This document shows, one piece after another, positions 19,013-49,466 of a stretch of 64,000 nt of DNA; the stretch's first letter is position 1, and each line of letters begins with the position of its first letter. The notes beneath the pieces are model-generated. The model made no database searches, had not been told where the DNA came from, and saw nothing but the letters and a program-made list of their open reading frames with translations. The translations under genes and the position numbers were made by a program. Source of the DNA: a virus; IMG/VR virus record IMGVR_UViG_3300037755_001058, positions 1-64,000 of that record. One strand, written 5' to 3'.

Positions 19013-19244
19013 ATGACCATCGATGACTTGATCGCGCAACTCGAAGAACTCAGGGAGGCAGCGCCTTAGTGGTGGCGACACCGAGGTGCTCGTCGCTACT
19101 CAACGGGAATGGCCGTTGGCACTCGTCGTGGAGCGGCTGTCCGTGGTGACGGAGGACTGCGATGAGCCGGCGGTGTGGATCGCCACCGGAGGCCATCCAT
19201 CGTGGCGGCGTCCGTACGCTCCGAAGGAGGCGTGGGATGAGTAG
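19013..19244 (+). pseudogene. small phage gene split by a +1 frameshift at CCT-TAG-T
   Basis: MTIDDLIAQLEELREAAP* continues in the +1 frame as SGGDTEVLVATQREWPL...PYAPKEAWDE*, ending across the next ATG. Confidence 0.6.
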
Positions 19245-19782
19245 GGATCCGTTCCGGTTGGCTCATGGGATCGATCCGTCGTCCGAGTACGAGTGGGCCG
19301 ATCTCAGGGCTAAGGTGGTTCGTGAGGTTATCGACGGACTGTCTCCTCTGCTCCTGGCGCAGGAGATGGTGGGTTCGACTGGATCGCACGAAGCGGCTCA
19401 ATTTGAGCACCGGTGGCGTGTGACCCTCGCGTCCATGTTCCACGTCAGGACCAGACGCGAGCAGGGCCATCCCACTCTGTGGAGATTCCTCTACAGGTGG
19501 CCGTCTGTGGTCCAGGTGGCCGATGCATCGGTTCAGGAGATTCAAGGTGTCGTCAGACCCCTGGGACTTCAGGTGCGTCGCGGCCGTCTCATCAAGACCG
19601 CTGCGAGGCAGCACATCATGGGTGTTCGTCCGTGGCCGGCCGACCCTGATGTTCCCATGGCGGGGGTCGGCCAGTACGTCATGGACGCGTACAGGATCTT
19701 CGCACTGAAGGAGAACATCTCTACTGACGACAGAGAGCTGAGGGCGTTCGTAGCATGGAGGCTACGAAACAGGTCGGGGTGA
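19237..19782 (+). CDS. MBD4-like HhH-GPD DNA glycosylase (T:G/U:G mismatch)
   Basis: SPLLLAQE...WRVTLASMFHVRT...LWRFLYRWPS...RPLGL..RR...GVGQYVMDAYRIF...DDREL closely parallels the MBD4 glycosylase domain. Confidence 0.85.
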   Translation: MSRDPFRLAHGIDPSSEYEWADLRAKVVREVIDGLSPLLLAQEMVGSTGSHEAAQFEHRWRVTLASMFHVRTRREQGHPTLWRFLYRWPSVVQVADASVQEIQGVVRPLGLQVRRGRLIKTAARQHIMGVRPWPADPDVPMAGVGQYVMDAYRIFALKENISTDDRELRAFVAWRLRNRSG

Positions 19783-19823: not shown

Positions 19824-20510
19824 ATGGATCTCTCGGAAGAGCAGCTGTCCGTGATCGAACGAGTGTCTCGGTGTGAGTCGCCGCTGACTACGCTCAGGCT
19901 CGTGTTCGCCGACCCGGCCGAGGCGTTCGTGTGCTCCCCGGTGCCGTTCACGATCCGTGAACTTGCGAAGCTCTACGAGGATACGGTCCCGAACGCCGTG
20001 GCCAGGACCAGGTTCATCACCGATCTACGCCGCCGGTCGTCTCTCGAGCGCTGGACCGAGCAGCGCGCGCAGTTTCAGACCGCGCGAAACATGGCCCGTA
20101 GACAGGCGCTACTCAAGGCTGAAGCCGACGTGTGGGCGATCCTCGGTCTCGAGTTCCACTCGAAGCGCATCCGCGGCCTGATGGATAGGTACGAGATGCT
20201 CCTGGACTACGTGGTTCGGAAGCTCGAGGAGATCGAGTCCTCCAGTCCTGATGTGGAGGGAGGACGACTCGATTTCGACGATCCCTTGCGCGATGCGTGC
20301 AAGGCACTCGACCAGGTCGAATCTCGGCTCGTGGAGATCATGCCAGAGTTGAACCTTCGTACGAAGGCCCTGGATGCATGGATGTCGGGGTCGGAGGGGC
20401 GTGACAAGCTCCTCGACGATTGCGAGGTAAAGCTGGTTAGCTTGCGCTCGGGAGAGAGGGCGATGGCCACCTTCGACCTCATCGAGGGTGGCTTCAACAA
20501 GGAGGAATGA
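19824..20510 (+). CDS. helical protein, possibly terminase small subunit
   Basis: TIRELAKLY HTH-like segment then RRSSLERWTEQRAQF and a coiled coil, as in many TerS proteins; weak. Confidence 0.4.
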   Translation: MDLSEEQLSVIERVSRCESPLTTLRLVFADPAEAFVCSPVPFTIRELAKLYEDTVPNAVARTRFITDLRRRSSLERWTEQRAQFQTARNMARRQALLKAEADVWAILGLEFHSKRIRGLMDRYEMLLDYVVRKLEEIESSSPDVEGGRLDFDDPLRDACKALDQVESRLVEIMPELNLRTKALDAWMSGSEGRDKLLDDCEVKLVSLRSGERAMATFDLIEGGFNKEE

Positions 20511-20971
20511 TGTCGGACGGTTCCTTAATCGACCGCGTGGCCTCCATCGAGCGGGCCGTTCTCGGGATGGATGGGCTCCTGGTCCGTCAGGCCGTCTCCG
20601 ACACGAAACTCGAGAAGGTCGGTGATGAGGTCGGACAGATTCGAGGAATGCTCGAGAAGCTCGTCGCAAAGAGCGACGAGGGCAGTCGTCCGAAGAAGGT
20701 GAACGGCGAGCCAGAGAAGTCCGGGCCAGCTGCGTCGCTGACGATCAACCTGGCCCCCAAGGGAGCCAAGGACATCGGAATCATCGGTGGGGTGTTCACC
20801 ACCCTCGTTGGCGGGCCTCTGATGCTGTGGCTGTACATGGCGCAGTCGCTTCCAGCTGAGATCAAGGCGGCCGTGAATCGAACCTTCGTGGTGCACCAGC
20901 TCGAGTCTCCGTCTGGGTCAACGAATGGTCGTCAGAGCTACTCTCCGGGAAAGGACGAACCCACGGAGTGA
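20507..20971 (+). CDS. coiled-coil plus single-TM membrane protein (holin-like?)
   Basis: N-terminal heptads; TM IGIIGGVFTTLVGGPLMLWLYM. Confidence 0.55.
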   Translation: MMSDGSLIDRVASIERAVLGMDGLLVRQAVSDTKLEKVGDEVGQIRGMLEKLVAKSDEGSRPKKVNGEPEKSGPAASLTINLAPKGAKDIGIIGGVFTTLVGGPLMLWLYMAQSLPAEIKAAVNRTFVVHQLESPSGSTNGRQSYSPGKDEPTE

Positions 20972-21588: not shown

Positions 21589-23226
21589 GTGTTCGTCGGT
21601 GATGTAGTTCCTATGTCCCATCAGCGTGAGGACGTCGAACGGTTGTCGGCATTCTCACGAATTCATGTGTGGAACGGGCTAGGTACCGGGAAGACGTTCA
21701 CCGTGGTGTGGTGGTTAGCATCTCTCTGGATGCGTGGTGTAGTGGACGAGGTGGTACTGCTAGCCCCAGGCATGTGCCTTGCGGACTGGCGCAGTTCGTT
21801 CGAGCGCGCGATGCCAGATGGATTGGTCGACTTCACCGACTGTCGGCCTCCTGATGCCGGTCTGGTTCGTGAGGCGTTAGAATCCCGGCTAAGACCTCCA
21901 CAGCACGCGTTGAGCGTCTACTCCACCACGTACGGTGGCCTCAGGGATCTGTTAGCCCTCAAGACTAGGGGGTGGGCGGTCGACGAAGCGGACAGGATGT
22001 TGGTGGGTGCCAGAGGTAGACGCACAGCATTCGTAGTTGATGAGGCTCAGGGCGTGGCCCTGTCGAATTCCGCACAGGGAGTCGCGGCCAGGGGGCTCGC
22101 GGCGTGCTGCAGGGCCGTATGTGGGATTACGGCCACTCCGGTGGGTAGACCGGAGCACCTGCGACTCTGGGGGTTGACCGGCCTAGTACGTCCTGACATT
22201 CTCACCAGGCTTCCGGTCGATATGTACAAGCCGAGGCCCAACGCGCCTCCAACGCCGGCAGGTAGGCCAGGTTCGTTCGACGCGTTCAAGTACCGGTTCG
22301 CGTTCCTGCGAGACCCGATGGAATCAAAGTGTAGGGGATTCCGGGTATCTCGGGCATTTCCGGTCGACGTGTACGTGGACAGGATCGAACACGAGATCCT
22401 AAGGCCGCAGGCTCCGTTCACGGTGCGCCGACGAAAGGAGGACTGTCTCGACCTTCCACCGAAGGTAAGGTTGATGCGGGCTATGCGATTGTCAGCTAAC
22501 GCACAACGGGCGATGATCGGTTTGGTGGAAGATGACCGGGCTATCCTAGAGGACGGTCATGCCGTCGTACCAGCAAATGTTCTAGAGGAGCGTCTTCGTA
22601 CGATCGAGCTATGCGGGGGATGGCTCGAGGGGCGACCTGTGCATGATGGGAAGCTTCGTCTTCTCAGAGATACCCTGCTGGAGGTGGAAGAAGCCGTTGG
22701 AGCCAACGCTCCGATCCACGTTTGGGCCTCTCGTAGCAGGGAGGTGTTCGCAGCCGCAATGGTGTGTGGCTCGGCCAAGCCTGAGGATGCGATGAGGATC
22801 GCATCCGAGGTCTACCCGCCGGATGGTACGGTGGTGGATCGTACTCGGTACCGAATGGAAGTACAGTCGTTGGAACGACGGGGTGTTGGGGTCATTCACG
22901 GGCCAACGGAGTCCAGAGATCGAGAACGTATCCAGACCGAATGGAAGAGCGGATCGATCAAGCGAGTAGTAGCCCATCCAGGCGTTGCTGGAGCCGGCTT
23001 GAACTGGCAGCACTCCAAGGCCGCGCTGTACTATTCGCAGCCGCTCGGCACCATCGCTAGACAGCAGAGCGAGGACAGGGTCCACAGGAAGGGCCTAACC
23101 CACGAGGCGCTAATCTACGACATGGTCGTGGAGAATGGGCCGGACTTCGAAGTTGCACGGGCCCATGCGCAACAGCGGAATGCAGCCGCAGCCATGCTCG
23201 ACTGGTTGTCCAGTATGATGGGGTAA
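21589..23226 (+). CDS. SNF2-like SF2 helicase/ATPase
   Basis: GLGTGKT, VVDEAQ, ITATP, RRRKEDCLDLPPK, GAGLN, QSEDRVHRKG. Confidence 0.9.
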   Translation: MFVGDVVPMSHQREDVERLSAFSRIHVWNGLGTGKTFTVVWWLASLWMRGVVDEVVLLAPGMCLADWRSSFERAMPDGLVDFTDCRPPDAGLVREALESRLRPPQHALSVYSTTYGGLRDLLALKTRGWAVDEADRMLVGARGRRTAFVVDEAQGVALSNSAQGVAARGLAACCRAVCGITATPVGRPEHLRLWGLTGLVRPDILTRLPVDMYKPRPNAPPTPAGRPGSFDAFKYRFAFLRDPMESKCRGFRVSRAFPVDVYVDRIEHEILRPQAPFTVRRRKEDCLDLPPKVRLMRAMRLSANAQRAMIGLVEDDRAILEDGHAVVPANVLEERLRTIELCGGWLEGRPVHDGKLRLLRDTLLEVEEAVGANAPIHVWASRSREVFAAAMVCGSAKPEDAMRIASEVYPPDGTVVDRTRYRMEVQSLERRGVGVIHGPTESRDRERIQTEWKSGSIKRVVAHPGVAGAGLNWQHSKAALYYSQPLGTIARQQSEDRVHRKGLTHEALIYDMVVENGPDFEVARAHAQQRNAAAAMLDWLSSMMG

Positions 23227-23239
23227 TGGGGGTTACCCA

Positions 23240-24103
23240 ATGGCCAGCGTTCCGCGCCCGCCCAGCAACAAGAGGAAAGCCGAGATCGACAAGGAGAGCC
23301 TCGCCACTCTGATAGAGGCGAGGCGGCTAGAGGATGAGGTCTTGAGGGATGTGGTCCCACAAGGCCCACGACCGAGACGTGCCATTATCCGCGACAAGCT
23401 CATCAGGTCATCAGACGCGGCTGATGACCAACGGTTTGTGGAATCCCAACGGTTGTGCTGGCACGCTGCCCATCTCATCGAGTACACCGTCTATACGGTT
23501 GCCCGTAAATGGGCGGCCCATAATGATAGCGTGTGTGATGAGGAGAGGGCCTGGGGTATGTGGGGCGCGTTCGAGGCCGCCAGGAGGTTCGATCCGGATA
23601 TGGGCGTCCTGTTCAGGACGTACGCGCGATGGTGGATCAGGGCGAAGATCACCAGGTCCATGCCCAATTCGAACCTTCCGGCTGGAAAGATCGAACAGGT
23701 GAGAAACCTACAGATCCTCAGAGATGAAGGAATCACCGATACTGACACGGTATGCCGGCGGATGGGCATAGACCGAGAGAGTCTGGAGAGGCTCAAGGTC
23801 TACGCGATGTCGAAATACTCCGTGTCTCTGGATTCTGGGCAGACCGACGAATATGACGATGTCCCGTTGGTTCTTGCATCTCCTGAGCCGGACTACCATG
23901 GTAGAGACATCGAGAAGCTGGTAGAGGCGCTGGACTCCCTCAGCGAACGTGAGAGGCACGTGGTGATCTGGAGGTACGGCATCGGTCAGTTAGAGCCAGT
24001 TCCTCTGTCTGAGGTCGGTCGTCGGCTGGATCTCTCGCGCGAGCGGGCCAGGCAGATCGAGGCCAAAGCCATCGAAGAGCTGAGACTCGCCCTCGCGGGT
24101 TAA
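23240..24103 (+). CDS. RNA polymerase sigma-70 family factor
   Basis: Region 2 AARRFDPDMGVLFRTYARWWIR; region 4 LSERERHVV..RYG...LSEVGRRLDLSRERARQIEAKA. Confidence 0.92.
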   Translation: MASVPRPPSNKRKAEIDKESLATLIEARRLEDEVLRDVVPQGPRPRRAIIRDKLIRSSDAADDQRFVESQRLCWHAAHLIEYTVYTVARKWAAHNDSVCDEERAWGMWGAFEAARRFDPDMGVLFRTYARWWIRAKITRSMPNSNLPAGKIEQVRNLQILRDEGITDTDTVCRRMGIDRESLERLKVYAMSKYSVSLDSGQTDEYDDVPLVLASPEPDYHGRDIEKLVEALDSLSERERHVVIWRYGIGQLEPVPLSEVGRRLDLSRERARQIEAKAIEELRLALAG

Positions 24104-25595: not shown

Positions 25596-28460
25596 ATGAA
25601 GCTAACGGTCCAGGCACTCAGCACCAGCCTAATGGCGTTGGGTCTGGACCCGTCGGAGGGCAACTCTCAGGGATGGGCCACCACCGTGTGCCCAGCGTGT
25701 GGCGCGGAATCGGACCGGCCATCGCTGAGAGTCCAGGTCGATACCGGTAACTACAAGTGCTGGCGATGCGGCGCCTCCTCCAGTGGAGATGCCAGCGTTC
25801 CGCTGGATGTATTCGTAGGCAACCCGGTAGCTCCAGGCGCTAGCTCCAAGACGGGTTCAGACCTACCTAAGTTGACCGAAGAGCTGGTTCTCACGTACGC
25901 AAGACTCCTGATGGAGTCTCCCGCCGTCGTGTCTGACCTGGAACGACGCCGGGGTTGGAACAGCACGACTACAGAGCGTATCAGCCTGGGATGGGATGGT
26001 AGCCATCTGTGGATTCCGGTACGCTCGGCCGATGGGGCGCTACAGAACGCGCGAATGTACGACCCGTTCAAGCGTCATAGGGTCAAGTCGTTCCATTACG
26101 CCAACGATGATGGCCTCAAGAGGACGGTGGCTTGGGTACCGTTCGGTCTGGAGTCGCTGGATGGTAGCGATGAGATCTGGATGTTCGAAGGTGAACCTGA
26201 CGCCATTCTTGCAGCCCAGATGGGCTTTCCGACGCTGGTAATCACGGGTGGGGCTGGAACTTGGACCGACGAGGTCTTGTCGATAGTGGCAGATCGCCGT
26301 GTAGTCCTGTGCTACGATATGGATGGGCCTGGCATCAACGGCGCCAAGGCCGTCAGGTCTAGATTAATCGCGGCAGGGAAGGACGTCGTCCATCTGAGCT
26401 TTCCGCTCAGTGATCCGTCGTACAAGGACTTCACCGATGCTGTGATGCATGACAGCAGGAATGCTGCGTGGTTTCGGCAGTTGGCCGATGATATGCGCGA
26501 GGGGGCTTCAGCCGGTGGAAGCGGAAAGGTACCGACCCCGCCTATGCCGGTAAAGTTCGGTGGAGGGACGCCGGGAGAGCCTATCATCGTCAAGGCCCAC
26601 GTCATGGGTTCGCATACAACTCCAGTGCTAGCGCCTCAAGTGGTAGAGGCCACCTGCACGATGAACTGGGGTGACGCGTGCGAGCGGTGTCCAGCGAGAC
26701 GGGCCGAGGGTCGTCTCACCGTCAGGGTAGACCCTGAGTCCAAGGCACTGATGAGTCTATGTGCCATGCCGGCTAGGACTCAGTCGGGTGAGCTGAAGAG
26801 GCTCGTAAGAGTTCCGTCCAGATGTCCCATCGTAGAGTTGACCACTCCAGCCATGTGGCAAGTGCAGCACTTGAAGCTGATAGCTCCGATGGCAGAGAGG
26901 GTGGGGGGCGACGATATCATCAGGGCTGCCATGTTCGTATCTCCTGCCGATGGAAGGCCACTCCCAATCAGGGCCAACCAGCTGTACAATTTCATTGGCA
27001 AGATCGAACCAGACGTCCTAACAAACGAGTGGACGTTAGTGTCTGGTGAGGCGCGTGCCGCCGAAGATGACGTGGAGTCGTTCAGACTGGATGCAGGTCT
27101 GGCGGAGGCCATGGCATCGATGGCTAGCCCGCCTGAATGGACGGTAGAGGCGATAGATGCGATCCTTCAGGACGAAGAAGACTCGATGGCTCGGCACACG
27201 ACGCATGTGTACGGACGGAGGTCGCTGCTGAGGGCTATCGACCTTGTGTATCACAGCGTGGTACAGTTTCCGTTCAAGGGCCGACCAACGACGCGTGGAT
27301 GGCTGTCTCTGGCCATCGTCGGAGATACGCGGACTGGTAAATCGGAGACCATGTCTGCTTACCAACGACATGTTGGAATGGGTCGATACGTTATGGACCC
27401 AGCCAACACGACATACGCCGGTCTGGTAGGAGGACTTCAGCAGGTAGGCAAGGGCGACAAGGCCTGGGTCATCACGTGGGGGCTCATCCCGACGAACGAT
27501 CGTGGTCTAGTAATCGTGGATGAGATCTCATCGTTGGACGTGGCCGATATCGGCAAGATGTCTGGCATGCGGTCATCTGGTGTGGCAGAGATCACTAAGA
27601 TCAGAGGTGCATCGACCCCCGCAAGGACCAGACTCATCATGGCGGGGAACCCACGAGGCCTGGGAAGGATGCTGTCGTCGTTCGGCACTCCTATCGAAGC
27701 TCTCATGGAGTTGATCGGAGCACCAGAGGACGTGGCACGGTTCGATCTTGCTCTGGCCGTTCCTCAGGGTTTGGACAAGGAACGGGCCGACAGGGATCTG
27801 GGAAGTCGGCCTCAACCGATGCCTGTTGAGCTACGTCGCGCGTTGATCAAGTTCGCTTGGTCCAGGGCGTCTGACCAGGTGGTCTGGGAGGATGGTGCTC
27901 AGGAGCTGTGCACATCGGAGGGATCTAGGCTAGCCTCCAAGTACTCTCACAGGATTCCACTGGTTGAGCCGTCAGAACAAGATTTGAAGATTGCCAGGAC
28001 GGCCGTAGCCTCTGCCTGTCGAACATTTTCAGTGGCCAACGACGATTTCAACACGGTATTTGTGCGATGCTGTCACGTACAGTTCGCCGTGACAACGCTC
28101 GAGCGACTGTTCGACGGTGAGCTGCAATATCGAGACTACTCGGAGTTCATGGATCGTCAGCGCATCGATAGAGGCGAGGTTACCAAGGTAGTCGTAGGAC
28201 TTCAACCACGCGCTGTACCAGCAACGTGTAGAGCCCTTCTGGGCCTGAGGAAGGTGAACCCCAATTCGATTGGAATGGTGCTAGGTCTGGACGGTGGAGA
28301 GGCGCGCCTGTTCATGTCCAAGCTGGCACAGAATGGCGCTGCGATCTTCGACACCGAGAACGGTCGAAACACTTCGATGGTGTGGACCTCAGACTTCGTA
28401 GGGTTGCTGCGAGACATGGAGACGAACCCTCCTGAGGTAGATGGGGAGGACCTCTTCTAA
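25596..28460 (+). CDS. primase (Zn-ribbon + TOPRIM) fused to an MCM-type AAA+ helicase
   Basis: CPAC..CWRC; MFEGEPD and CYDMDGPG TOPRIM; IVGDTRTGKS, IVDEI, IMAGNP, ARFDL (MCM SRFD arginine finger). Confidence 0.88.
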   Translation: MKLTVQALSTSLMALGLDPSEGNSQGWATTVCPACGAESDRPSLRVQVDTGNYKCWRCGASSSGDASVPLDVFVGNPVAPGASSKTGSDLPKLTEELVLTYARLLMESPAVVSDLERRRGWNSTTTERISLGWDGSHLWIPVRSADGALQNARMYDPFKRHRVKSFHYANDDGLKRTVAWVPFGLESLDGSDEIWMFEGEPDAILAAQMGFPTLVITGGAGTWTDEVLSIVADRRVVLCYDMDGPGINGAKAVRSRLIAAGKDVVHLSFPLSDPSYKDFTDAVMHDSRNAAWFRQLADDMREGASAGGSGKVPTPPMPVKFGGGTPGEPIIVKAHVMGSHTTPVLAPQVVEATCTMNWGDACERCPARRAEGRLTVRVDPESKALMSLCAMPARTQSGELKRLVRVPSRCPIVELTTPAMWQVQHLKLIAPMAERVGGDDIIRAAMFVSPADGRPLPIRANQLYNFIGKIEPDVLTNEWTLVSGEARAAEDDVESFRLDAGLAEAMASMASPPEWTVEAIDAILQDEEDSMARHTTHVYGRRSLLRAIDLVYHSVVQFPFKGRPTTRGWLSLAIVGDTRTGKSETMSAYQRHVGMGRYVMDPANTTYAGLVGGLQQVGKGDKAWVITWGLIPTNDRGLVIVDEISSLDVADIGKMSGMRSSGVAEITKIRGASTPARTRLIMAGNPRGLGRMLSSFGTPIEALMELIGAPEDVARFDLALAVPQGLDKERADRDLGSRPQPMPVELRRALIKFAWSRASDQVVWEDGAQELCTSEGSRLASKYSHRIPLVEPSEQDLKIARTAVASACRTFSVANDDFNTVFVRCCHVQFAVTTLERLFDGELQYRDYSEFMDRQRIDRGEVTKVVVGLQPRAVPATCRALLGLRKVNPNSIGMVLGLDGGEARLFMSKLAQNGAAIFDTENGRNTSMVWTSDFVGLLRDMETNPPEVDGEDLF

Positions 28461-29770: not shown

Positions 29771-30090
29771 TGGCCGACCCTTCCGAGGGGGTGAGGCGTT
29801 TTTTCGTGAACGCCGCCCAGCGCATATCGAGGCGACCCGTCGCCAAGGCAGCCTACGCGGCTACCTTGGTCGTCGGGCCGTTCAGTTTCAGTGTGGCAAC
29901 CAAAGGTACCGGGTCATCCTCATTGATTCCGAAGATCGGAATGCCAACAGCGACCAGATCAGACTCGTGGACGTCAGCCGTACTAGCGCGGCCCGAAGAA
30001 CAACGACGTACGAGGCTGTCTCGAGAAGAACGTAGGGATAAGAAGAGGCGTAGAAAGGTTACCCGCGCCGCCAAACGGAGGAACCGTTGA
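29770..30090 (+). CDS. basic hypothetical protein
   Basis: Coupled to neighbours on both sides; Arg/Lys-rich C-terminus. Confidence 0.5.
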   Translation: MADPSEGVRRFFVNAAQRISRRPVAKAAYAATLVVGPFSFSVATKGTGSSSLIPKIGMPTATRSDSWTSAVLARPEEQRRTRLSREERRDKKRRRKVTRAAKRRNR

Positions 30091-30866
30091 ACGTTCAGGC
30101 CTGCGCCCCAAATGGTATCGATCTCGTCGACCTGCCTTCGGACCCTCAGGCCGATATGATCTCTCGCCAGAGGCGCTTCCAGGCTCGGGTATACGGAGAA
30201 GCCAAGCTGGCAGAGTTGCGCGATTTCGGCTCATCACGGCGCTGTGACGTACGGGCCGTGTTGCATCACCTAGACATGGGTGGTCAGGAGTGCTCCGAGG
30301 CCTGGGACATGGTCGAGGGTGGATGGAAACACCACAAGACCAATCCGCACGATCCTGACAAGCTCGAACTCATGATGGAGCTCGTCGATATCATGTGTTT
30401 CGCGCTGAACACGTACATCTACATGGGGGGTCAGCCTGAATCGGAACTCGTGGCGGCGGCCGTTGCCAGGAGCAAGGAACAGATGCGATACCCGAAGATT
30501 GGCCTCGACGAGGCATGGGTCATCGGGGCATCGAGCTGGGAGAGGAACGGCCCGAAGATGCGAGCCCTGTACGATCATGGCCGCGGTAGCCATGGGCGGG
30601 AGTGGACCAAGGAAGCCGCGACGCGCATCAACTTCCTCAGGGCACAGTTCTTCGACTCAGCAGCAACCATCAGGTACGGTCTGTCGAGGATGACCAAGGC
30701 CGAGCGCGAGACGTTTCCGCCGGCGTCCGGTTATGTCTACATCCAACTCGTTCCGTGGATCTGCGGTGCGGTTCAGGCGATCCCTGGAATGGGACTACAG
30801 GACCTGTACTCTGCCTTCGTGAAGAAGGACCAGATCAACAATGAGAGGCAAGATGCAGGCTATTAG
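30087..30866 (+). CDS. all-alpha NTP pyrophosphatase (dimeric dUTPase / T4 gp56 dCTPase-like)
   Basis: QECSEAWD..WKHHK, MELVDIMCF, C-terminal KKDQINNERQDAGY. Confidence 0.8.
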   Translation: MNVQACAPNGIDLVDLPSDPQADMISRQRRFQARVYGEAKLAELRDFGSSRRCDVRAVLHHLDMGGQECSEAWDMVEGGWKHHKTNPHDPDKLELMMELVDIMCFALNTYIYMGGQPESELVAAAVARSKEQMRYPKIGLDEAWVIGASSWERNGPKMRALYDHGRGSHGREWTKEAATRINFLRAQFFDSAATIRYGLSRMTKAERETFPPASGYVYIQLVPWICGAVQAIPGMGLQDLYSAFVKKDQINNERQDAGY

Positions 30867-32064
30867 CCTGGGGTACCAATCGCATCCGTTGGACGACCAG
30901 TTCTCTGCGATCACGGTTCGTTTGAACGAGGCGTCCGATGAGCACACAGCTCTCGGGACATGCATCTTCGCCGGAGGATTTTCCTTCGGAATGGAAGAGG
31001 CCGGGTTCACGGTGGCCGGTCATCTCGAACTTCCGGACCTGGCCCTCGGGTCTCACACCTCCAAGCAGAGGTGGCCGGTTGCCGTAGCCAGTCTCGATCT
31101 ATGGAAGGAGTACATCGATCAGCTGCGGGATAAGGACATCGTTCCAGATGTATTCTACGCCAATCCACCTTGCGTTGCTTACGCCGGTACTGGGAAGCAC
31201 GATGGAACGATGGATAGTCGTATGTGCTATACCAGGTACTGCGCGTACGATGCAGCCATGAGACTTCAGCCTGACGTCTGGATGTGGGAGCTGGTCGACG
31301 GAGTCATGCGAGACCGAGGATTTCTCGATGCGATGGCGTTCCGAGCGAAGTCCCTCGGGTACAGGTGCTACGCATTCCTTACATCATCGGCTATCCATGG
31401 TGGATACCAGGACAGGCGTAGATTCCACTTCGTTGCTAGCCGGTTCGAGCTAGACTTCGAGGATGTGTGGGCCAACGAGCCCGTTCCTCGTAGGACCGTG
31501 CACACCCTCTCAGAGGCGTTGGCGTCGGTGCCTGCAGGTTCTACCAACCACGAGACCGTGTATAGGGGAGCATTCCGATCGATCTTCCCGTTCTGCCCCC
31601 CGGGAATGCACCTTCGGGATGTGTCTGATGATGTCATGCGTGAGCACTACCGTCCACGTGGTACTGCGTGGACAGGCACGGGGAGACCTGGGTTCTCACA
31701 CACGCGTGCGAGGATGGACCGGCCATCCCCTAATGTCCTCGGAGGCCATACGATAATCCACCCCATCGAGAACAGGTACCTCACACCTCGTGAGTGCGCC
31801 GCTATCATGGGGTTTCCCCATGACTACGCCTTCAGCCACGGTGCTATGGCGTACGCTGAGATAGGCAGGGGGTTGTGCACCCACAACGCCGCGTTCCTGG
31901 GGAGGGTAGTCAAGAACGCTCTTGAGAGGCGCGTGCGTACGGTGCCGACCAGGGTTGACGACTCCTGGATGACAGTGGTAGACTGGCGCCGGAGGGCCAA
32001 GCCCCTTCGGCTGAAGATGACCGAAGCCGAAATCGAGGCTTGGTGGAGTGAGCGAGTTTCGTAA
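30853..32064 (+). CDS. atypical C5-cytosine DNA methyltransferase homologue (candidate carboxymethyltransferase)
   Basis: IFAGGF (I), NPPC (IV), ELV (VI), QDRRRF (VIII), RYLTPRECAAIMGFP (IX), AYAEIGRG (X, N replaced by R). Confidence 0.85.
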   Translation: MQAISLGYQSHPLDDQFSAITVRLNEASDEHTALGTCIFAGGFSFGMEEAGFTVAGHLELPDLALGSHTSKQRWPVAVASLDLWKEYIDQLRDKDIVPDVFYANPPCVAYAGTGKHDGTMDSRMCYTRYCAYDAAMRLQPDVWMWELVDGVMRDRGFLDAMAFRAKSLGYRCYAFLTSSAIHGGYQDRRRFHFVASRFELDFEDVWANEPVPRRTVHTLSEALASVPAGSTNHETVYRGAFRSIFPFCPPGMHLRDVSDDVMREHYRPRGTAWTGTGRPGFSHTRARMDRPSPNVLGGHTIIHPIENRYLTPRECAAIMGFPHDYAFSHGAMAYAEIGRGLCTHNAAFLGRVVKNALERRVRTVPTRVDDSWMTVVDWRRRAKPLRLKMTEAEIEAWWSERVS

Positions 32065-38611: not shown

Positions 38612-38631
38612 ACACATGGGTGAGGTGAACG

Positions 38632-38886
38632 ATGAAGTTCAACGAGACGGCCATCAAGGCGCTCCCGGAGCGAAACCAGAGAACGATCATGAACCTCCTC
38701 AAGGAGTTGGAGGTCTCCCCGGAGCGGGGGACCTTCGTGATCAGTCGGGAGATCCTCGACCGGATGACCCCCCGGCAGCTCAGGACGCTCAGGCTGATGC
38801 GGCGCGTCCACGACGCGATGGACGTTCCGGTGGTGACACGAGGCCGTTCATCAATCAAGCGGAAGGAGTCGACCGCGACGGAGTGA
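38632..38886 (+). CDS. hypothetical protein
   Basis: GAGGTG RBS; TGATG coupling to the TS homologue. Confidence 0.6.
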   Translation: MKFNETAIKALPERNQRTIMNLLKELEVSPERGTFVISREILDRMTPRQLRTLRLMRRVHDAMDVPVVTRGRSSIKRKESTATE

Positions 38887-39842
38887 TGTCATTCGGCTCG
38901 ATGGATGAGCTCTTCAGGTTCGCCGTCTGGAAGTGCATCGAGCATGGACGGATGACCAAGCCGAGGGGCTTTTCGGTTCTGGAGATCGCCACTCCCACCG
39001 TGCTCACCTTGCGGGACGTCCACAGGCCGTTCATCCACTCGCCTCTGCGACGGCCCAACTACCGATTCGGCCTGGTAGAGGCCGCATGGATCGCAGCCGG
39101 ATCCGATCGTCTGGCCCACCTTTCCGCCGTGAACTCGCGGATGGCACGGTTCAGCGATGATGACTCCACGATGTGGGGTGGGTATGGGCCGCGCGTGATC
39201 GGTCAACTCGACCATGTCATCGAGACACTGCGGCGGGACAACGACAGTCGCCAGGCGGTCGTGACGACATGGCGACCCATGGTTCCACCGGTGGTGGGCA
39301 AGTCTCAAGGCCCGATTCGATCGGCTGGCCTGATGGCCACAGGTTCTGAGACGGTCAGTCCTACATGGGATGGCTACTCCTGGCGATCAAAGGACGTCCC
39401 GTGCACCGTAGCATGGCACTTCCAGTTGCGGAACGGCGGACTGGCTCTGACCGTATTCATGCGGTCTAACGACGTGTGGCTGGGGTTGCCGTACGACGTG
39501 CTGAGCTTCACCACCATCCAGCGTGTGGTTGCTTCTGCACTTGGTGTGAGACTCGGTGCGTACCACCATGTGGTCAGCAACCTTCATCTGTACCAGAAGA
39601 ACTACGAGGCTGCTGTCAGTCTCATGGGGGAGACCGTCTCCAACGAGACTGTGGTGATGCCACCATTCGATGACCTGTTCCTCGGTGGCAGTAGTGATTC
39701 GATGTCGACGATCTTCAACACGACTCTCAACGGCTCTCTCATCTTGATGTCCAAGCCCGGGATGCAGCCGTTCATCTCGGCGGTGATTGGATCCGATGAA
39801 TGGGACGACTTCCGAAAGCTCATGGCTGCTAACGGAAGGTGA
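38886..39842 (+). CDS. thymidylate-synthase homologue, Asp-type (dCMP methylase/hydroxymethylase-like)
   Basis: YGPR, DSRQAV, KDVPCT, MRSNDVWLGLPYD (Asp at the EcTS N177 position), NLHLY. Confidence 0.85.
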   Translation: MSFGSMDELFRFAVWKCIEHGRMTKPRGFSVLEIATPTVLTLRDVHRPFIHSPLRRPNYRFGLVEAAWIAAGSDRLAHLSAVNSRMARFSDDDSTMWGGYGPRVIGQLDHVIETLRRDNDSRQAVVTTWRPMVPPVVGKSQGPIRSAGLMATGSETVSPTWDGYSWRSKDVPCTVAWHFQLRNGGLALTVFMRSNDVWLGLPYDVLSFTTIQRVVASALGVRLGAYHHVVSNLHLYQKNYEAAVSLMGETVSNETVVMPPFDDLFLGGSSDSMSTIFNTTLNGSLILMSKPGMQPFISAVIGSDEWDDFRKLMAANGR

Positions 39843-39854
39843 TAGGATCTCAGT

Positions 39855-42242
39855 ATGCTCGACGCCTCCTACAGGATCTGTTGGTCTATCGACTCTTGGG
39901 TATCAACCCTTCGAGAGGCTCAGGATTCGTGGATAGTTGGGTATGACTTCGAAACCTGTCCTGACAGGTTCCATGCCGACTACCACCCGAAGAAGGGTCG
40001 CGATGGCAAGCCGAGTAAGTGCATCCCCAGCGCTCTTCGTCCTGAGGATGGAGCAAGAATCGCGGGCATAGCCATTTCATGGCTCGACACCAATGACCGA
40101 ATCAGGTCCGCGTACGCCCCCATCAGGCACGATCCACGGTTCGCGGGTGGTGATCAGCTTGACCCATTGCAGGTCTGTAAGGCATTCAGCGACTTCATCG
40201 CCGACAGGCCTGCTGATAGGTATCTGGTTGTTCACAATCTCATGATGGAGCTTAGTTGTCAGCTGGCCGAGAATATCGTGTGGCCGAAGGAGGGGCAACT
40301 TCACGACATTCAGATCGCGGCCAGGGTTCTCAACCGGGGAGTAGGATTCCAGGAGCTGATCGGCCTCAAGCCACTCCAGGCCGAGGTGTTGAAGCGAGAC
40401 ATGGGGTCCAAGAACGACTTGGATCGTTGGCTGAAGGCCCATAGGTTCAAGCCTGGTCGTGACATCTGGAGAGCCCCTGCACCATTGGCCGGTTGGTACG
40501 CTCAGGATGATGCCCGTGACACTCTCGAGATCTGTCTGAAGTGGTGGAAGCTGATTCATCAGCCACCTACCAGATGGTGGTGGCACAGGGCACCAGATAG
40601 GTCTCAGCGCCTGGACCTGTACGAACTCGAGATTCGTGCGGCTATTGAAGCCACAATCTCATGCATGCGTGGGACACGGTACGATGCACCCTTCTGCCGG
40701 CGTCAAGGACGCGCGGCCGAGGTACTGCAGTCCATCGCTCGCGACTGGATCCGAGGATACCTGGGAATGCCGGCCCTCAATCCAGGAAGCCAAACCCAGC
40801 TCAGAGGTGTTCTGTTCGGAACTCGGTTCAACTTCGAAGTCTCGCTCGAGCACACGACGGAGAGCTTCAAGAAGCTACCAGAGCGTGAACAGGCATCGAC
40901 AATAGCTGGGCATGGCAAGGCACCTCTGGTGAGTTACGCCTCTCTCGATGTTGATGCCCTCAAGTACTACGAGTCCAAGTACATAGAACACGCGGACCTG
41001 CTGTTCATGCTGGCTGTGTACCGTAAGTGCTCCACAGCCATATCGTGGTTCGATGACAGGGTCCTGCAGTTCGGCGTTCGTGGATCTCCAGATCCATGGT
41101 GGAATTCAGACGCTGGTTCGTACCTGAACTTGATGTTCCATCGTCTGAGGACGGTAGGGACCGGCCCGGGCCGGATGAGCAGTTCAGACTACAACGCTCA
41201 GCAGGTGCCGAAGCGACTGAAGATGCTGCTGAACGCAGCTCGGCTATTCCGTATCCTGGAGGAGGTCATGCACCCGTCCAGGCTAAACGGAATCATGTCG
41301 ATTCTGATTAGAGTACCGTGTAAGGAGGGCGACGAGGCGAAGGTCCTTGGACTGCAGCCTGGTGACGAGGTGGTGGACTTCTCCATCAGGAGAATGTTTA
41401 TCTCCAGGCCGGAGTTCAACCTCAGGACGTTCGACCTCTCACAGGTCGAGATGCGTGGGTTTGCCCATTACACGGGTAATCGCCTACTGTGTAACGGGTA
41501 CGGGCCACCGTTGGCTAACGTCGCGGCCTTAGCAGAGTTAGACGCCGTCCAAGCTCTCATGGAGGAACGTGAGCCTGATTGGTCGAATGTCGATGTTGAA
41601 CGCCATGTTAGGATGGAGGAGAACGAGTTCGACATTCATGGATTCGTCAGTGACGAGCTGAGCATCTCACGCAAGGGTGGAAAGGGGATCAACTTTGGGC
41701 TCGTCTACGGAATGGGTGAAAAGAAGCTGGCTCGAGGTCTAGGGTGGTCACCTGGCGACGGAAAGCTGTACCTAGCCAGATACCATGCCAAGTTTCCAGA
41801 GATCAGGCAGATGCAGGGAAAGATCGTCATCGCCCTGAGGAGCAGGGGATACGTCTTCGATCCATTCGGCAGACGTTACTACCTACCGGTGGCCAGAGCG
41901 TACGTAGGCTTGAACCGCCTGATCCAAGGGTGGGCTGCCACTGCGTTCAAGGTGGGATTCGTCAGGACCTCCGAGGTGTTCAGGTCACCAGGGTTCGGTG
42001 GTGGGTCTATCGATTCTGTCACTGGACTCCGTCGTAGTGATGGAGCCAGAATCCTCACCTGTATCCATGACGAGCAGATGGGTGAGATCCACAGGTCGCT
42101 CGATAATGTCAGGACTGACTGGGTGGTCAGGTCGTGCATGACGAACCTGTTCGGATTGAACGTACCGCTAGCATCGTCATCTGAACGTTCCGACGGCCCG
42201 TGGGACAATGCTACCGGTGTCTCGGCTAAACTACCAGTATGA
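39855..42242 (+). CDS. polA: family A DNA polymerase with 3'-5' exonuclease
   Basis: YDFET, HN, YAQDDA exonuclease; TGPGRMSS, FDLSQVEMR (A), RKGGKGINFGLVYG (B), IHDE (C). Confidence 0.95.
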   Translation: MLDASYRICWSIDSWVSTLREAQDSWIVGYDFETCPDRFHADYHPKKGRDGKPSKCIPSALRPEDGARIAGIAISWLDTNDRIRSAYAPIRHDPRFAGGDQLDPLQVCKAFSDFIADRPADRYLVVHNLMMELSCQLAENIVWPKEGQLHDIQIAARVLNRGVGFQELIGLKPLQAEVLKRDMGSKNDLDRWLKAHRFKPGRDIWRAPAPLAGWYAQDDARDTLEICLKWWKLIHQPPTRWWWHRAPDRSQRLDLYELEIRAAIEATISCMRGTRYDAPFCRRQGRAAEVLQSIARDWIRGYLGMPALNPGSQTQLRGVLFGTRFNFEVSLEHTTESFKKLPEREQASTIAGHGKAPLVSYASLDVDALKYYESKYIEHADLLFMLAVYRKCSTAISWFDDRVLQFGVRGSPDPWWNSDAGSYLNLMFHRLRTVGTGPGRMSSSDYNAQQVPKRLKMLLNAARLFRILEEVMHPSRLNGIMSILIRVPCKEGDEAKVLGLQPGDEVVDFSIRRMFISRPEFNLRTFDLSQVEMRGFAHYTGNRLLCNGYGPPLANVAALAELDAVQALMEEREPDWSNVDVERHVRMEENEFDIHGFVSDELSISRKGGKGINFGLVYGMGEKKLARGLGWSPGDGKLYLARYHAKFPEIRQMQGKIVIALRSRGYVFDPFGRRYYLPVARAYVGLNRLIQGWAATAFKVGFVRTSEVFRSPGFGGGSIDSVTGLRRSDGARILTCIHDEQMGEIHRSLDNVRTDWVVRSCMTNLFGLNVPLASSSERSDGPWDNATGVSAKLPV

Positions 42243-43033: not shown

Positions 43034-43506
43034 TGGACAGCCCACCAGACCTTAGGGTGCTGTTGGTGGAGCTCGCCCGGGAGCTCAATCGGATTCGTCC
43101 TGAATCCGTTCTGGGTGCGGAGCTGGAGCGAGTATCCACGGCCAAGAACACGTTGTTAGTGCTCAGTCGTGTTCTAACGGCCATGGCCGTTCGGGCCGGC
43201 GTATCGAAGGATGCGGTTGACAGGGCCGTGGCCAAGGCCCGTCGGGCTAACGAACCCAAGCAGGGTGACATGTTCGTTCCTGTTGTGGTCAGCCCGGTTG
43301 CTGAGACGTTGACGACTACCACGGATTGGTACATCATCGCTGAGGTTGACCTGGTGCTTCTCAAGCACCGAACGGAACTTCCAGACTGGTTCGTTAACGA
43401 TTTCTGGCCAGGCTGCATACGGCGCGCGGCTCAGGGCCTGAGGTTGACTGATCGAGAGCGAGCAATTGCCGAGTACCAAGCCAGTAAGGCCAGGGGGGAA
43501 CGGTGA
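43030..43506 (+). CDS. hypothetical protein
   Basis: ATGA coupling. Confidence 0.65.
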   Translation: MMDSPPDLRVLLVELARELNRIRPESVLGAELERVSTAKNTLLVLSRVLTAMAVRAGVSKDAVDRAVAKARRANEPKQGDMFVPVVVSPVAETLTTTTDWYIIAEVDLVLLKHRTELPDWFVNDFWPGCIRRAAQGLRLTDRERAIAEYQASKARGER

Positions 43507-43967
43507 TGAGGCCATCTTGGGACGAGTACTTCATGCACATGGCGGTGATGATCTCCACCAGATCGACGTGTGACCGTCGCAGGGTGGGGTGCGTACTGGT
43601 GTCGCCTCAGTGGAATGTGGTGAGCACCGGGTACAATGGCTCGGCTCCTGGAACTGAACACTGTGACGATACGGGTCACATCATGCACGATGGGCACTGC
43701 GTTCGTACCATCCATGCCGAACGCAACGCCATCGCCCATGCTGCCAAGCGCGGAGTGGCTACCGACAGGACTACGGCGTACATCACCACGATGCCGTGTC
43801 CCACGTGCATCACCGATCTTGTTGCAGCAGGGATCAAGTCGGTGGTCTTCCTAGAAGGCTACCACGACGAGGAGGATCAGGTCACTCGTCGCTTGGCCGC
43901 GGCGAGCGGTGTCGTGCTGTACGAATACGACGGGAGAAAGACATGGGAAAGTCCGATCGACCGGTGA
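43503..43967 (+). CDS. dCMP deaminase
   Basis: RPSWDEYFM, RSTC.RRRVG, GYNG, HAERNAI, PCPTC. Confidence 0.92.
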   Translation: MMRPSWDEYFMHMAVMISTRSTCDRRRVGCVLVSPQWNVVSTGYNGSAPGTEHCDDTGHIMHDGHCVRTIHAERNAIAHAAKRGVATDRTTAYITTMPCPTCITDLVAAGIKSVVFLEGYHDEEDQVTRRLAAASGVVLYEYDGRKTWESPIDR

Positions 43968-46811: not shown

Positions 46812-49466
46812 GTGACGGCGGGCCGCGCGTTCCATACCGATAGTCGCACGTGGAGCAACTTCCAGCCGAACGAACTGGTCAAGCTCTGCGGCGTCCCGAT
46901 GGGCCGGTGGCCCGTGTACGTCGTCAAGGAGCTCCTCGACAACGCCGTGGCGGCGCTTGAGGAACACGCTCTTCGGGTGCCGATGATTCGTGTGACGGTG
47001 ACCAAGGACTACGTTGAGGTCATGGACAACGGTCCTGGCATCTCAGACGTCGTTCTCGAGAAGGTCCTGGACTTCGAGCGGTTCGGTGGTAGCAACCGTC
47101 ATCACAAGCTGCCAACCAGGGGGGCCCAAGGCAACGCGATCATGACCATCGTCGGGATCGCCTCCGCCTGGGCACCGGACCGAAGCATCGAGGTCTCGCG
47201 GCCCTCTGGACCCCGAGTCGCACTGGATGTGAAGCTCGACAAGGTCCTGCAAGAGGTCAAGGTCGAGACCATCACTGTAGGCGAGCCAGGGCCGTCTGCC
47301 ATCAGGGTGCCGTGGCCGGTCGAGGTCCCGTGGAAGCGGGGTGGCTCTTCGTTCGAGGATGTTGTCTCCACGATCAGAGACTTCTCCTGGATGAACCCCC
47401 ACGTACAGTTCATGATGACGGACTCCACTGGGAAGTCCACGGCGACCAGGTCGGTCCTGATGGAGCCCGGGGCCACAGCCGCAATGCGCGGATCGTTCTC
47501 ATGTGGTGCCGCATCCTGGTTCACCAGAGACGAGTTCTACGAGAGGATGGCTGCAGACGTTCGTGCCAGACCCGACATCATGATGTCGGACTGGTGCAAG
47601 GAGTTTGCCTTCTCGAAGGTGGGCCCGGCCGTGCTGTCCCTCTCCGGAGAGCCCGATGGGACGCTGTCCGCCAAGGTAACGGTGGACAGCGGGCACAAGG
47701 TGTCGTCATTCCTTCAGGGCCTCGTCCTCGGATGCAGCAACCTGAAGCTGGCGGAGAATCCACAGTTCGTACCGCTGGGCAAGGATCGGATGGCAGGGTT
47801 TCTGACCTCGGAGCGTGGGTCAGATCGTGACTGTGATGCCCAGTACCATTCGCTCACCGGGTCATTCGGCGACGGCGATACCAAGGTCCCATTCCTGGTG
47901 GAGGTCTGCCTTCAGCAGATGCCTGACAGGGTCAGGTACTCGCCAGAGCCAACACTGGCGATGAACCGTACCGTGCTGTACGGCTCTCCGTCGTTCCGGC
48001 GGAAGGACGGCTTCCAGTGGCGCGAGAAGGTCCGTGGCAACTGGCATGGCCTGGATGGGGACTTGGGGGCCCTGGCCAGGGCGTACCAAATCGACCACGG
48101 GAAGACGCCGGCGGCTATCCTGGTCCATGTGACCTGTCCATCGCCGGGGTACGCCGGCTATGGCAAGCAGCAGTTCGACACCTCATGGCTGGCCGGACCA
48201 CTCAGCCAGTGCTTCGAGCGCGTGACGCTCGAGGTCAGGAGACAGCGGGCTGGAGAGGCTCGACGTAAGAACGCGAACCGCCCGAAACGGGATACCATCC
48301 GTGAGGAGATGTTCCGACTCGTTCCAGGTGTACTGGACGAGGTCACCGATAGCGGAAAGTACGAGCCGCTCATCAGGCAGTTCTACTACTCCTTCAGGAA
48401 GGAGTGGTACACTCAGGACGATCGAGAGCTTCACTACGGAACGTTCTGTGCGTACGTCGACGAGTACGAGCGCAGCATCGGAAGGTTGGTCTGTCTGAGA
48501 GACCCCCGTGGAACCCTGTACGAGCCACATAGCAACAAGGTGGTCCGCCTCGGTACGAGCGATGTGCGGGACTACAAGCCGAAGAAGTGGGAGGGCCACA
48601 CCATCATCTTCGTCGAGAAGGAGAACCTCGCCTCTCAGATGAGGGCGATGAACATCCACAAGCGGTGGGATGCCATCATCGTCGGGTCCAAGGGGTTCGC
48701 CGTCGAGGCCATCCGGGAGGTACTCCAAAAGTACCGACGGCTGCTCGGAGATCTGGTGAAGATCGTCGTCCTGCACGACGCCGACCCGGCAGGGTACATG
48801 ATCGGATACGATCTGGCCACCAACCTCCCGAGGTTCGGTGATACGGTCGACGTCCAGGTCATCGACGTCGGTCTCACGATCAGAGATGCTGTCACCATGG
48901 GGCTTCAGGACGAACCATTCGACCTGTCCAAGCAGGTCTGGTCGATGATCACGAAGACCATGATGACCAAGACCCTCAAGGACCCTGACGGAACCACTCG
49001 GCCCCTGCTAGAACCGGAGGCGCGTGACTCCTTCGTTCCGAGCATCTGGCAGGGCGCCGAGTATCCATCCTGGGCTGACAAGCCTCGCGGTCGACGAGTG
49101 GAGCTCAACGCGATGCCTCCACGAGAATTCGAGGCTTGGGTCGAAAGGAATCTGGAGATACATGGCTGCAGGAAGGTCAGGCCACCGGATGAGGTCGTGA
49201 GCGAGCAGATGGTGAACGCTCGAACGAACGCCATCACGAACCAGACCGGCGAACTGTTCATGCGCCTGATGGGTCAGGAAGTGGTTGATGAGGTGCTGCG
49301 CGAGATCGGCGTGCCATCGTACGATCTGGACTCTGTTCTGGAGAGCCGGCCTGAACAGCACTGGCACTACCTGGTCACCAGAGCTGCCCAGTCCGGACAG
49401 GACATCGGCCAGGCAGTGGAACGGGTGATGAAGCGGCGGTTCCCCCAAATGTTCGGAGGTGGGTGA
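46812..49466 (+). CDS. single-chain type IIB topoisomerase (TopoVI-B GHKL fused to TopoVI-A/Spo11; Topo VIII-like)
   Basis: VKELLDNA, DNGPGI, TRGAQGNA (GHKL); IRQFYY (catalytic Tyr), IFVEKE, SKGF, LHDADPAG, VELNAM (TOPRIM). Confidence 0.85.
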   Translation: MTAGRAFHTDSRTWSNFQPNELVKLCGVPMGRWPVYVVKELLDNAVAALEEHALRVPMIRVTVTKDYVEVMDNGPGISDVVLEKVLDFERFGGSNRHHKLPTRGAQGNAIMTIVGIASAWAPDRSIEVSRPSGPRVALDVKLDKVLQEVKVETITVGEPGPSAIRVPWPVEVPWKRGGSSFEDVVSTIRDFSWMNPHVQFMMTDSTGKSTATRSVLMEPGATAAMRGSFSCGAASWFTRDEFYERMAADVRARPDIMMSDWCKEFAFSKVGPAVLSLSGEPDGTLSAKVTVDSGHKVSSFLQGLVLGCSNLKLAENPQFVPLGKDRMAGFLTSERGSDRDCDAQYHSLTGSFGDGDTKVPFLVEVCLQQMPDRVRYSPEPTLAMNRTVLYGSPSFRRKDGFQWREKVRGNWHGLDGDLGALARAYQIDHGKTPAAILVHVTCPSPGYAGYGKQQFDTSWLAGPLSQCFERVTLEVRRQRAGEARRKNANRPKRDTIREEMFRLVPGVLDEVTDSGKYEPLIRQFYYSFRKEWYTQDDRELHYGTFCAYVDEYERSIGRLVCLRDPRGTLYEPHSNKVVRLGTSDVRDYKPKKWEGHTIIFVEKENLASQMRAMNIHKRWDAIIVGSKGFAVEAIREVLQKYRRLLGDLVKIVVLHDADPAGYMIGYDLATNLPRFGDTVDVQVIDVGLTIRDAVTMGLQDEPFDLSKQVWSMITKTMMTKTLKDPDGTTRPLLEPEARDSFVPSIWQGAEYPSWADKPRGRRVELNAMPPREFEAWVERNLEIHGCRKVRPPDEVVSEQMVNARTNAITNQTGELFMRLMGQEVVDEVLREIGVPSYDLDSVLESRPEQHWHYLVTRAAQSGQDIGQAVERVMKRRFPQMFGGG

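Follow-up and report, generated by a model that had tools for sequence, protein, structure and literature searches.

A stand-alone MBD4-type DNA glycosylase predicted in an uncultured phage that probably carries 5-modified cytosine

The window analysed here, 64,000 nucleotides in length, represents the first 64 kb of a linear 91,853-bp IMG/VR virus record (IMGVR_UViG_3300037755_001058; estimated completeness: 85%) of an uncultured phage, and includes a gene (P0001; Table 1) whose 181 amino acid (aa) product is identified, by sequence comparison and a structural model, as an MBD4-type HhH-GPD DNA glycosylase. We consider it probable, though well short of assured, that this protein is a stand-alone glycosylase which protects a genome containing 5-substituted cytosine by excising its deamination products opposite guanine, a function predicted from its sequence, its modelled fold and the genes found with it. 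A literature search, mostly outside subscription journals and including the MetaGPA papers, retrieved no paper on phage MBD4-type glycosylases or on their link with modified cytosine, while the phage homologues are labelled in GenBank as ‘hypothetical protein’, ‘endonuclease III’ or ‘ENDO3c domain-containing protein’. The glycosylase is a divergent member of a known enzyme kind, found in a recurrent and apparently undescribed viral setting.

When the protein was compared with the PDB using phmmer, fifteen MBD4 glycosylase-domain entries were matched first, over residues 55-178 (e-values: 4e-13 to 1e-11; Bitscore: 52), while MutY/MUTYH represented the next family (e-value: 0.04; Bitscore: 17). 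The sole Pfam match was a sub-threshold one to HhH-GPD (e-value: 0.0036), NCBIfam gave a faint similarity to MutY (22 bits against a cut-off of 286) and no family in PHROGs matched the protein. An AlphaFold2 model, built on 21 relatives, was obtained with a mean predicted local distance difference test score of 91.8 and a predicted template modelling (TM) score of 0.89. In a Foldseek comparison of this model against the PDB, ranks 1 to 16 were all occupied by MBD4 chains (e-values: 2e-6 to 3e-5; TM by target: 0.76-0.84), with NTHL1, Mig and MutY appearing after them, from an e-value of 1.8e-3. An earlier note on this DNA had aligned the protein by eye with the MBD4 catalytic domain and had named Nth and MutY as the families to be distinguished from it; both the sequence and the structure comparison come down on the side of MBD4. 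The motifs which it quoted are all present (SPLLLAQE at residues 36-43; W60, A65, F68 and R71-T72; LWRFLYRWPS at 81-90; PLGL at 108-111; GVGQYVMDAYRIF at 143-155; DDREL at 164-168), with the trivial correction that the spacing between W60 and A65 is one residue longer than was written. The 181 residues include no cysteine, and a 4Fe-4S cluster of the Nth/MutY type is therefore impossible, which bears out the absence of the cluster noted earlier; the features by which Nth, MutY and Mig are recognized, namely the four-Cys cluster loop and, for Nth, the catalytic Lys, are missing from the protein. Residues 36-179 comprise the glycosylase domain, while residues 1-35 form an N-terminal extension common to a clade of short relatives to which the protein belongs. 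There is no methyl-CpG-binding domain (PF01429), the weak HhH-GPD match being all that Pfam returns for the 181 aa.

The pocket and catalytic residues were aligned using MAFFT with named animal MBD4-like proteins of Branchiostoma (P0035), a flea (P0152) and a cockroach (P0017), while human MBD4 numbering was counted along the phmmer alignment and reproduces the published loops 466-471, 503-511 and 534-541 (PMC3479182). Apart from the residues paired in Table 1, Thr72, Leu109-Gly110, Gly143 and Gly145 likewise align with the animal proteins, and L40, G143, G145, Y147, D165 and L168 are invariant in the family alignment. In MBD4, Gln449 reads N3 and O2 of the flipped T or 5-hydroxymethyluracil (5hmU), the Arg468 finger plugs the gap of the flipped base, the backbone of Leu506 reads the orphan guanine, Tyr540 is situated in the HhH hairpin and Asp560 is catalytic, while cytosine is inhibitory when it occupies the pocket (PMC3479182). 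No MBD4 residue is contacted by the 5-hydroxymethyl group of 5hmU (PMC3479182), and the pocket therefore tolerates 5-substituted uracils. Bifunctional HhH enzymes have a lyase Lys, and a non-basic residue in its place denotes a monofunctional enzyme (PMC8307549). As Tyr147 occupies the position of the Nth lyase Lys, the phage glycosylase is predicted to be monofunctional, and its residues point to a cluster-less enzyme that relies on a catalytic Asp.

The catalytic domain of mammalian MBD4/MED1 (PDB 6vjw, 3iho, 4dk9, 4e9e-h, 4evv, 4ew0 and 1ngn) thus provides the closest comparison, sharing the fold (TM by target: ~0.8), the pocket Gln, Arg finger, PLGL loop, HhH Tyr and catalytic Asp with the phage protein, while neither has an FeS cluster or a lyase Lys. 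The two would also share the logic of a T/5hmU:G glycosylase working in a genome rich in 5-substituted cytosine, an activity that is predicted for the phage enzyme. They differ in that the phage protein stands alone, without a methyl-CpG-binding domain or linker, and carries the extension of ~35 aa at its N-terminus, 10 residues inserted after the QE motif and ahead of the first core helix, and a Glu in place of Lys562, with an identity of ~26-30%. The thymine-DNA glycosylase Mig.MthI of the Methanothermobacter plasmid pFV1 (PDB 1kea) is likewise an HhH-GPD protein, but belongs to the MutY/Mig family with its 4Fe-4S cluster and gives a weaker fold match than MBD4 (Foldseek e-values: 2.6e-3 vs 2e-6). 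Vsr of Escherichia coli follows the same repair logic, but is a sequence-specific endonuclease of unrelated fold. In both of these systems, a T:G repair activity accompanies a 5-methylcytosine (5mC)-producing enzyme, Mig being found with a methylase and Vsr with dcm.

The gene content of the record agrees with the suggestion of the earlier note that the phage modifies cytosine. The rightward block encodes a ThyA-fold enzyme, predicted to be a (d)CMP C5-hydroxymethylase or methylase, in which an Asp stands at the position of Asn177 in E. coli ThyA (RSNDVWLGLPYD), a substitution that marks specificity for cytosine nucleotides, as in the dCMP hydroxymethylase of T4. The best PDB match of this enzyme is the CMP 5-hydroxymethylase MilA (e-value: 4e-24), whereas thymidylate synthases reach 5e-14 at best. 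A dCMP deaminase, a dUTPase_2-type nucleoside triphosphate (NTP) pyrophosphatase and a homologue of DNA C5-cytosine methyltransferases are also encoded (Table 1), together with a class I S-adenosylmethionine methyltransferase and a P-loop kinase with weak similarity to dTMP kinases. The gene set for cytosine replacement of the Xp12 (5mC) or T4 (5-hydroxymethylcytosine, 5hmC) type, comprising an Asp-type ThyA, NTP pyrophosphatase, kinase and deaminase, is therefore present, and these predicted functions suggest that the phage probably carries 5-modified cytosine in its DNA. The ThyA-fold enzyme is itself unusual in its architecture, its 408 aa including a Pro/Asp/Gly/Ala-rich N-terminal extension of ~95 residues, with a further, large insertion preceding the catalytic Cys region, and MilA outranks every thymidylate synthase and T4 gp42 as its solved relative.

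The Xanthomonas phage Xp12 is the classic example of a phage in which 5mC replaces all cytosine. When three family members (P0010, P0016 and P0020) were compared by tblastn against 50,697 deposited phage records, the matches were essentially restricted to the Xp12 group, Janthinobacterium phage Donnerlittchen, cyanophage S-TIM54 and an archaeal Aeropyrum virus, the Xp12 relatives being FMYAK-P1, MET13-T1, YB23, Ep029, DoCa6 and Stenotrophomonas phage AXL_1, while neither the glycosylase of the analysed phage nor P0022 gave a match in the same records. In both Xp12 and Donnerlittchen the glycosylase gene is located directly 5′ of genes for an NTP pyrophosphatase, a ‘thymidylate synthase’ (dCMP methylase), a dCMP deaminase and DHFR, and the ThyA homologues of Xp12, Donnerlittchen, S-TIM54 and the analysed phage all align with Asp at the specificity position. 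The Xp12 ThyA homologue makes 5-methyl-dCMP (5mdCMP) and its deaminase supplies dTTP from 5mdCTP, while the deaminases of 5mC phages prefer 5mC and 5hmC and also act on single-stranded DNA in vitro (bioRxiv 10.1101/2024.12.05.627091). The Xp12 glycosylase homologue (QNN97216.1; annotated as a ‘hypothetical protein’, 160 aa) likewise finds its best PDB match in MBD4 (e-value: 5e-14) and, with its orthologs in the Bradleyvirinae, represents a further stand-alone phage MBD4-type glycosylase, accompanied as in the analysed phage by an Asp-type ThyA (dCMP methylase), a dCMP deaminase and an NTP pyrophosphatase. It differs in its placement in another family clade, with an identity of 30% across 97 residues, in having Leu for the Arg finger and in the location of its gene inside the 5mC cluster, whereas the gene in the analysed phage lies at least 11 kb from the modification genes.

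In the T4-like cyanophage S-TIM54 (OP053362.1), the MBD4-type gene (L006:4277-4663) is annotated as a ‘hypothetical protein’. The ThyA homologue of this phage (L007) is also of the Asp type (RSNDMATGVPLD), which suggests a modified cytosine, as yet unreported, in S-TIM54.

When 1.84 billion cluster representatives were searched exhaustively with HMMER, 672 relatives of the glycosylase were retrieved at e-values of 1e-3 or lower, the closest sharing at most 49% identity with it; the nearest relatives (P0002, P0007, P0009 and P0020) are encoded on contigs of 75-103 kb. Many of the 672 are stand-alone proteins of 120-250 aa, while others are long proteins with a C-terminal domain, the named ones among them being animal MBD4s. 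The nearest clusters in the ESM Atlas (50, 376 and 110 members) consist of small HhH-GPD proteins that are 98-100% viral, mostly from Uroviricota. A degenerate DNA scan of IMG/VR using one motif variant (G-x-G-x-Y-x-x-D-[SA]-[YW]-R-[ILV]-F) returned 101 stretches, from which 80 loci were examined; 77 of the 80 encode family members by the family hidden Markov model, 75 of them with scores of at least 96 bits. The MBD4-type glycosylase family is common in uncultured tailed phages. A metagenome scan for the family yielded a single 1-kb contig. No match was found by megablast of the glycosylase region, a word-index protein search for homologues found the glycosylase itself alone, and a related-locus search in IMG/VR with A2, P0007, P0009, P0156, P0040 and the polymerase returned no locus, so that by this last method the phage has no close kin. 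At ~17 of the IMG/VR loci (L031:3886-4704, L014, L053, L059, L060, L081, L083, L087 and others) the family member is situated in an open frame of ~270 aa; these frames run from stop to stop, and the part outside HhH-GPD, which has no Pfam match, is not necessarily a fused domain and may derive from upstream sequence.

The company kept by these glycosylases was surveyed in the whole records behind 48 confirmed loci on contigs of at least 28 kb, most of which are fragments (completeness: 7-100%). A ThyA-fold gene is present in 15/48 records and is of the Asp type in 14 of the 15, across at least four motif lineages, while a gene of the dCMP-deaminase family is found in 31/48, though the records are mostly fragments. 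A DNA C5-methyltransferase occurs in one record, the same one that harbors the sole Asn-type ThyA, and each record with a visible pyrimidine-C5 enzyme beside the glycosylase also has a route to 5-substituted cytosine. The earlier note had offered, as one of two readings, that the glycosylase is the repair arm of a cytosine-modification system, and had suggested a check of its co-occurrence with DNA C5-methyltransferases. The former proposal gains comparative support from the synteny of the Xp12 type and from the 14/15 Asp-type ThyA enzymes; the latter does not hold generally, at one record in 48, the general partners of the glycosylase being dCMP-type ThyA enzymes and deaminases rather than C5-methyltransferases. 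The exceptional record (G006, locus L022) is 224,853 bp in size, has terminal repeats and is 100% complete, and its predicted C5-methyltransferase would offer a way of making 5mC after replication, in the company of the same glycosylase.

By homology with MBD4, the phage glycosylase would bend the DNA and flip out a thymine-like base from a mismatch with G; this base could be T, U, 5hmU or a uracil bearing some other 5-substituent. The flipped base would be read by Gln42, Tyr147 and the backbone of Ala41, while Arg71 would plug the gap, the orphan G would be checked by the backbone at Arg71 and Leu109, and Asp165 would hydrolyse the N-glycosidic bond. The resulting abasic site could then be processed by a host apurinic/apyrimidinic (AP) endonuclease and ligase and by a phage or host polymerase, with the (modified) C:G pair restored from the nucleotide pool of the phage itself. 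Deamination of 5mC, 5hmC and larger 5-substituted cytosines yields exactly such 5-substituted uracils, which Ung-type uracil glycosylases are not known to remove. These lesions might arise spontaneously, for instance in long-lived virions, or alternatively where the dCMP-type deaminase encoded by the phage acts, as a side activity, on single-stranded DNA.

Several observations weigh against such a protective role. The glycosylase gene is ~11-24 kb away from the modification genes in this phage and its neighbours have no family match, and as such the linkage is loose here, unlike in Xp12. No match to the Xth, Nfo, H2TH (Nei/Fpg) or ATP-ligase families was found in the 91.8-kb record, so that repair would depend on the host, the family A DNA polymerase being the sole downstream base-excision-repair activity that the phage encodes. 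A ThyA-fold gene lies in the fetched flank of only six of the 77 IMG/VR loci, and one 100% complete record (G018, locus L043; 174,359 bp) harbors the glycosylase with no match to a ThyA-fold enzyme, C5-methyltransferase or dCMP deaminase, representing either an exception to the association or another route of modification. Furthermore, the frequencies of 14/15 and 31/48 are raw counts within glycosylase-bearing records, and the 48 records are not phylogenetically independent and were sampled with one motif variant. At the level of the protein, the Glu which replaces MBD4 Lys562 (Glu167) and the Leu which replaces the Arg finger in the Xp12 and S-TIM54 homologues suggest that specificity may differ within the family.

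The loose linkage, the 6/77 loci and the complete record with none of the three marker families would all suit the main rival explanation, a general housekeeping glycosylase for U:G or T:G of whatever source or for other damaged pyrimidines, with no special tie to cytosine modification, which large phages would carry along with further genes of nucleotide metabolism; dCMP deaminases are common in large phages, which would also fit. Against this rival, 14 of the 15 co-resident ThyA-fold enzymes are of the unusual Asp type and the remaining one is accompanied by a C5-methyltransferase. The vast majority of the 50,697 deposited phage records also lack the family, which among isolated phages is nearly confined to the 5mC-containing Xp12 group and is situated there inside the 5mC gene cluster. 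We regard a purely housekeeping role as unlikely, while granting it real weight.

A second alternative places the enzyme in the quality control of the modification pathway, where it would remove from new phage DNA either misincorporated 5hmU or T, made by the deaminase from modified dCMP or dCTP, or bases left unmodified or wrongly modified. The deaminase genes in 31/48 records and in the analysed phage are compatible with this role, as are the unusual nucleotide pools exemplified by the supply of dTTP from 5mdCTP in Xp12, and the N-terminal extension and the Lys562-to-Glu change could alter specificity. The residues by which MBD4 reads thymine and uracil and checks the orphan G are nevertheless intact, T or hmU opposite A would not be a substrate of an MBD4-like enzyme, and neither fusion nor tight linkage with modification enzymes is observed in this phage, making quality control an improbable function.

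The earlier note had also raised the possibility that the glycosylase attacks unmodified host DNA, that is, a weapon which would excise bases from host or competitor DNA and spare the modified phage genome. Cytosine-replacing phages such as T4 do degrade C-containing DNA, and the position of the gene, the first of a rightward replication and nucleotide-metabolism block after a divergent intergenic region, would suit early expression. The pocket residues, however, are those which read thymine and uracil, whereas cytosine inhibits in the MBD4 pocket (PMC3479182), intact host DNA offers no G-mismatched pyrimidines, and no nuclease or lyase partner adjoins the glycosylase. The suggestion finds no support in these data and we consider it very improbable.

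The relationship to the eukaryotic proteins was addressed with a maximum-likelihood tree of the best 150 relatives, rooted on a single MutY-like outgroup, so that no direction of transfer is claimed. The outgroup (L002), a 314-aa protein from a Spirochaetaceae metagenome-assembled genome, was the sole locus obtained from a scan of genome contigs and was rejected as a family member on account of its MutY/Nth-like character. The long eukaryote-like proteins form one clade (78 rows; SH-like approximate likelihood ratio test: 98), while the phage glycosylase falls in a separate clade of 17-21 short proteins with its N-terminal extension, across a split with 96-98% support. The description of the enzyme as ‘eukaryote-type’ in the earlier note is therefore valid only in that the characterised members of the family are eukaryotic, and fails as a statement of origin, the glycosylase being placed among short, apparently viral proteins outside the supported clade that holds the named eukaryotic MBD4s. 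Recent capture of an MBD4 catalytic domain from a eukaryote is the least likely of the explanations considered and hardly credible, for although the sole characterised relatives are eukaryotic and the S-TIM54 homologue groups with eukaryote-like sequences (40% identity to a 581-aa protein), the glycosylase is just 26-37% identical to the eukaryote-like members, stands across the supported split from the animal MBD4s in its clade of stand-alone proteins, and belongs to a family with 98-100% viral nearest clusters and 77 IMG/VR loci.

Should phages that modify all of their cytosines routinely encode an MBD4-type enzyme of their own, genome-wide modification of cytosine would carry a mutational cost, which these viruses would offset through a gene dedicated to repair. 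The repair of deaminated 5mC and 5hmC has been studied almost only in eukaryotes (MBD4 and TDG) and with Vsr in E. coli. The glycosylase gene would then serve as a simple metagenome marker for phage genomes with modified cytosine, and methods for methylation sequencing and damage detection would gain a set of small, cluster-less T/5hmU:G glycosylases, whose 5-substituent specificities may be new. The family would furthermore be relevant to the question of where the eukaryotic MBD4 domain came from. As Xp12 is cultivable, the hypothesis is directly testable in that phage. A more far-reaching version can be offered only tentatively and is itself unlikely to hold in full: stand-alone MBD4-type glycosylases would form a widespread guardian module dedicated to cytosine-replacing phages and paired with their 5-modified-cytosine deaminases, the clade of the present enzyme would be tuned to the deaminated form of an undescribed hypermodified cytosine, and the eukaryotic MBD4 domain would possibly derive from the viral/prokaryotic radiation.

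Within the window, the glycosylase gene, which has a strong ribosome-binding site, is the first rightward gene after a divergent intergenic region of ~420 bp, the leftward, structural-looking genes ending at 18812. The start codon given in Table 1 was preferred over an upstream ATG at 19162 because relatives begin with the same N-terminal residues in the family alignment (e.g. MSRDQFALATG in P0012). Neither a sigma-70-type promoter nor an intrinsic terminator was found around the gene.

Table 1. Window coordinates of the glycosylase gene, its aligned residues and the predicted nucleotide-modification and polymerase genes
Feature	Position	Strand	Basis
MBD4-type HhH-GPD DNA glycosylase coding sequence (P0001, 181 aa), predicted	19237..19782	+	ATG 19237, stop 19780-19782, translation
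Shine-Dalgarno sequence GAAGGAGG	19223..19230	+	6 nt 5′ of ATG 19237; read from sequence
Gln42 codon	19360..19362	+	Aligns with QE motif of animal MBD4 (Gln449)
Arg71 codon (in RT)	19447..19449	+	Aligns with MBD4 Arg468 finger (phmmer, MAFFT)
PLGL loop, Pro108-Leu111	19558..19569	+	Aligns with MBD4 loop 503-511
HhH hairpin and next helix, GVGQYVMDAYRIF, residues 143-155	19663..19701	+	Tyr147 aligns with MBD4 Tyr540
Asp165 codon, predicted catalytic Asp	19729..19731	+	Aligns with MBD4 Asp560; invariant in 21/21 aligned relatives
Dimeric dUTPase/dCTPase-type NTP pyrophosphatase	30087..30866	+	Pfam dUTPase_2, e-value 1.4e-8
DNA C5-cytosine methyltransferase homologue	30841..32064	+	Pfam PF00145, e-value 3.8e-19
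ThyA-fold enzyme, predicted (d)CMP C5-hydroxymethylase or methylase	38616..39842	+	Asp at E. coli Asn177 position (RSNDVWLGLPYD)
Family A DNA polymerase (PolA)	39855..42242	+	Pfam DNA_pol_A, e-value 7e-27
dCMP deaminase (ComEB-like)	43503..43967	+	NCBIfam TIGR02571, e-value 4e-40

Two open reading frames on the same strand (19824-20971; 228 and 154 aa), which overlap by 4 nt, are located directly 3′ of the glycosylase gene; neither has a Pfam or PHROG match, and the second has an apparent hydrophobic C-terminal segment. Further along the rightward strand, a gene for a sigma-70 family factor with regions 2 and 4 (23240-24103) is situated just 3′ of one for an SNF2-type helicase (21589-23226), and a 954-aa protein (25596-28460) has both a Toprim-like primase domain and a P-loop helicase domain of the MCM type, joined in one chain. 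In a single open reading frame of 884 aa (46812-49466, +), a GHKL ATPase occurs together with a Topo VI-A/Spo11 Toprim domain, representing a fused type IIB topoisomerase.

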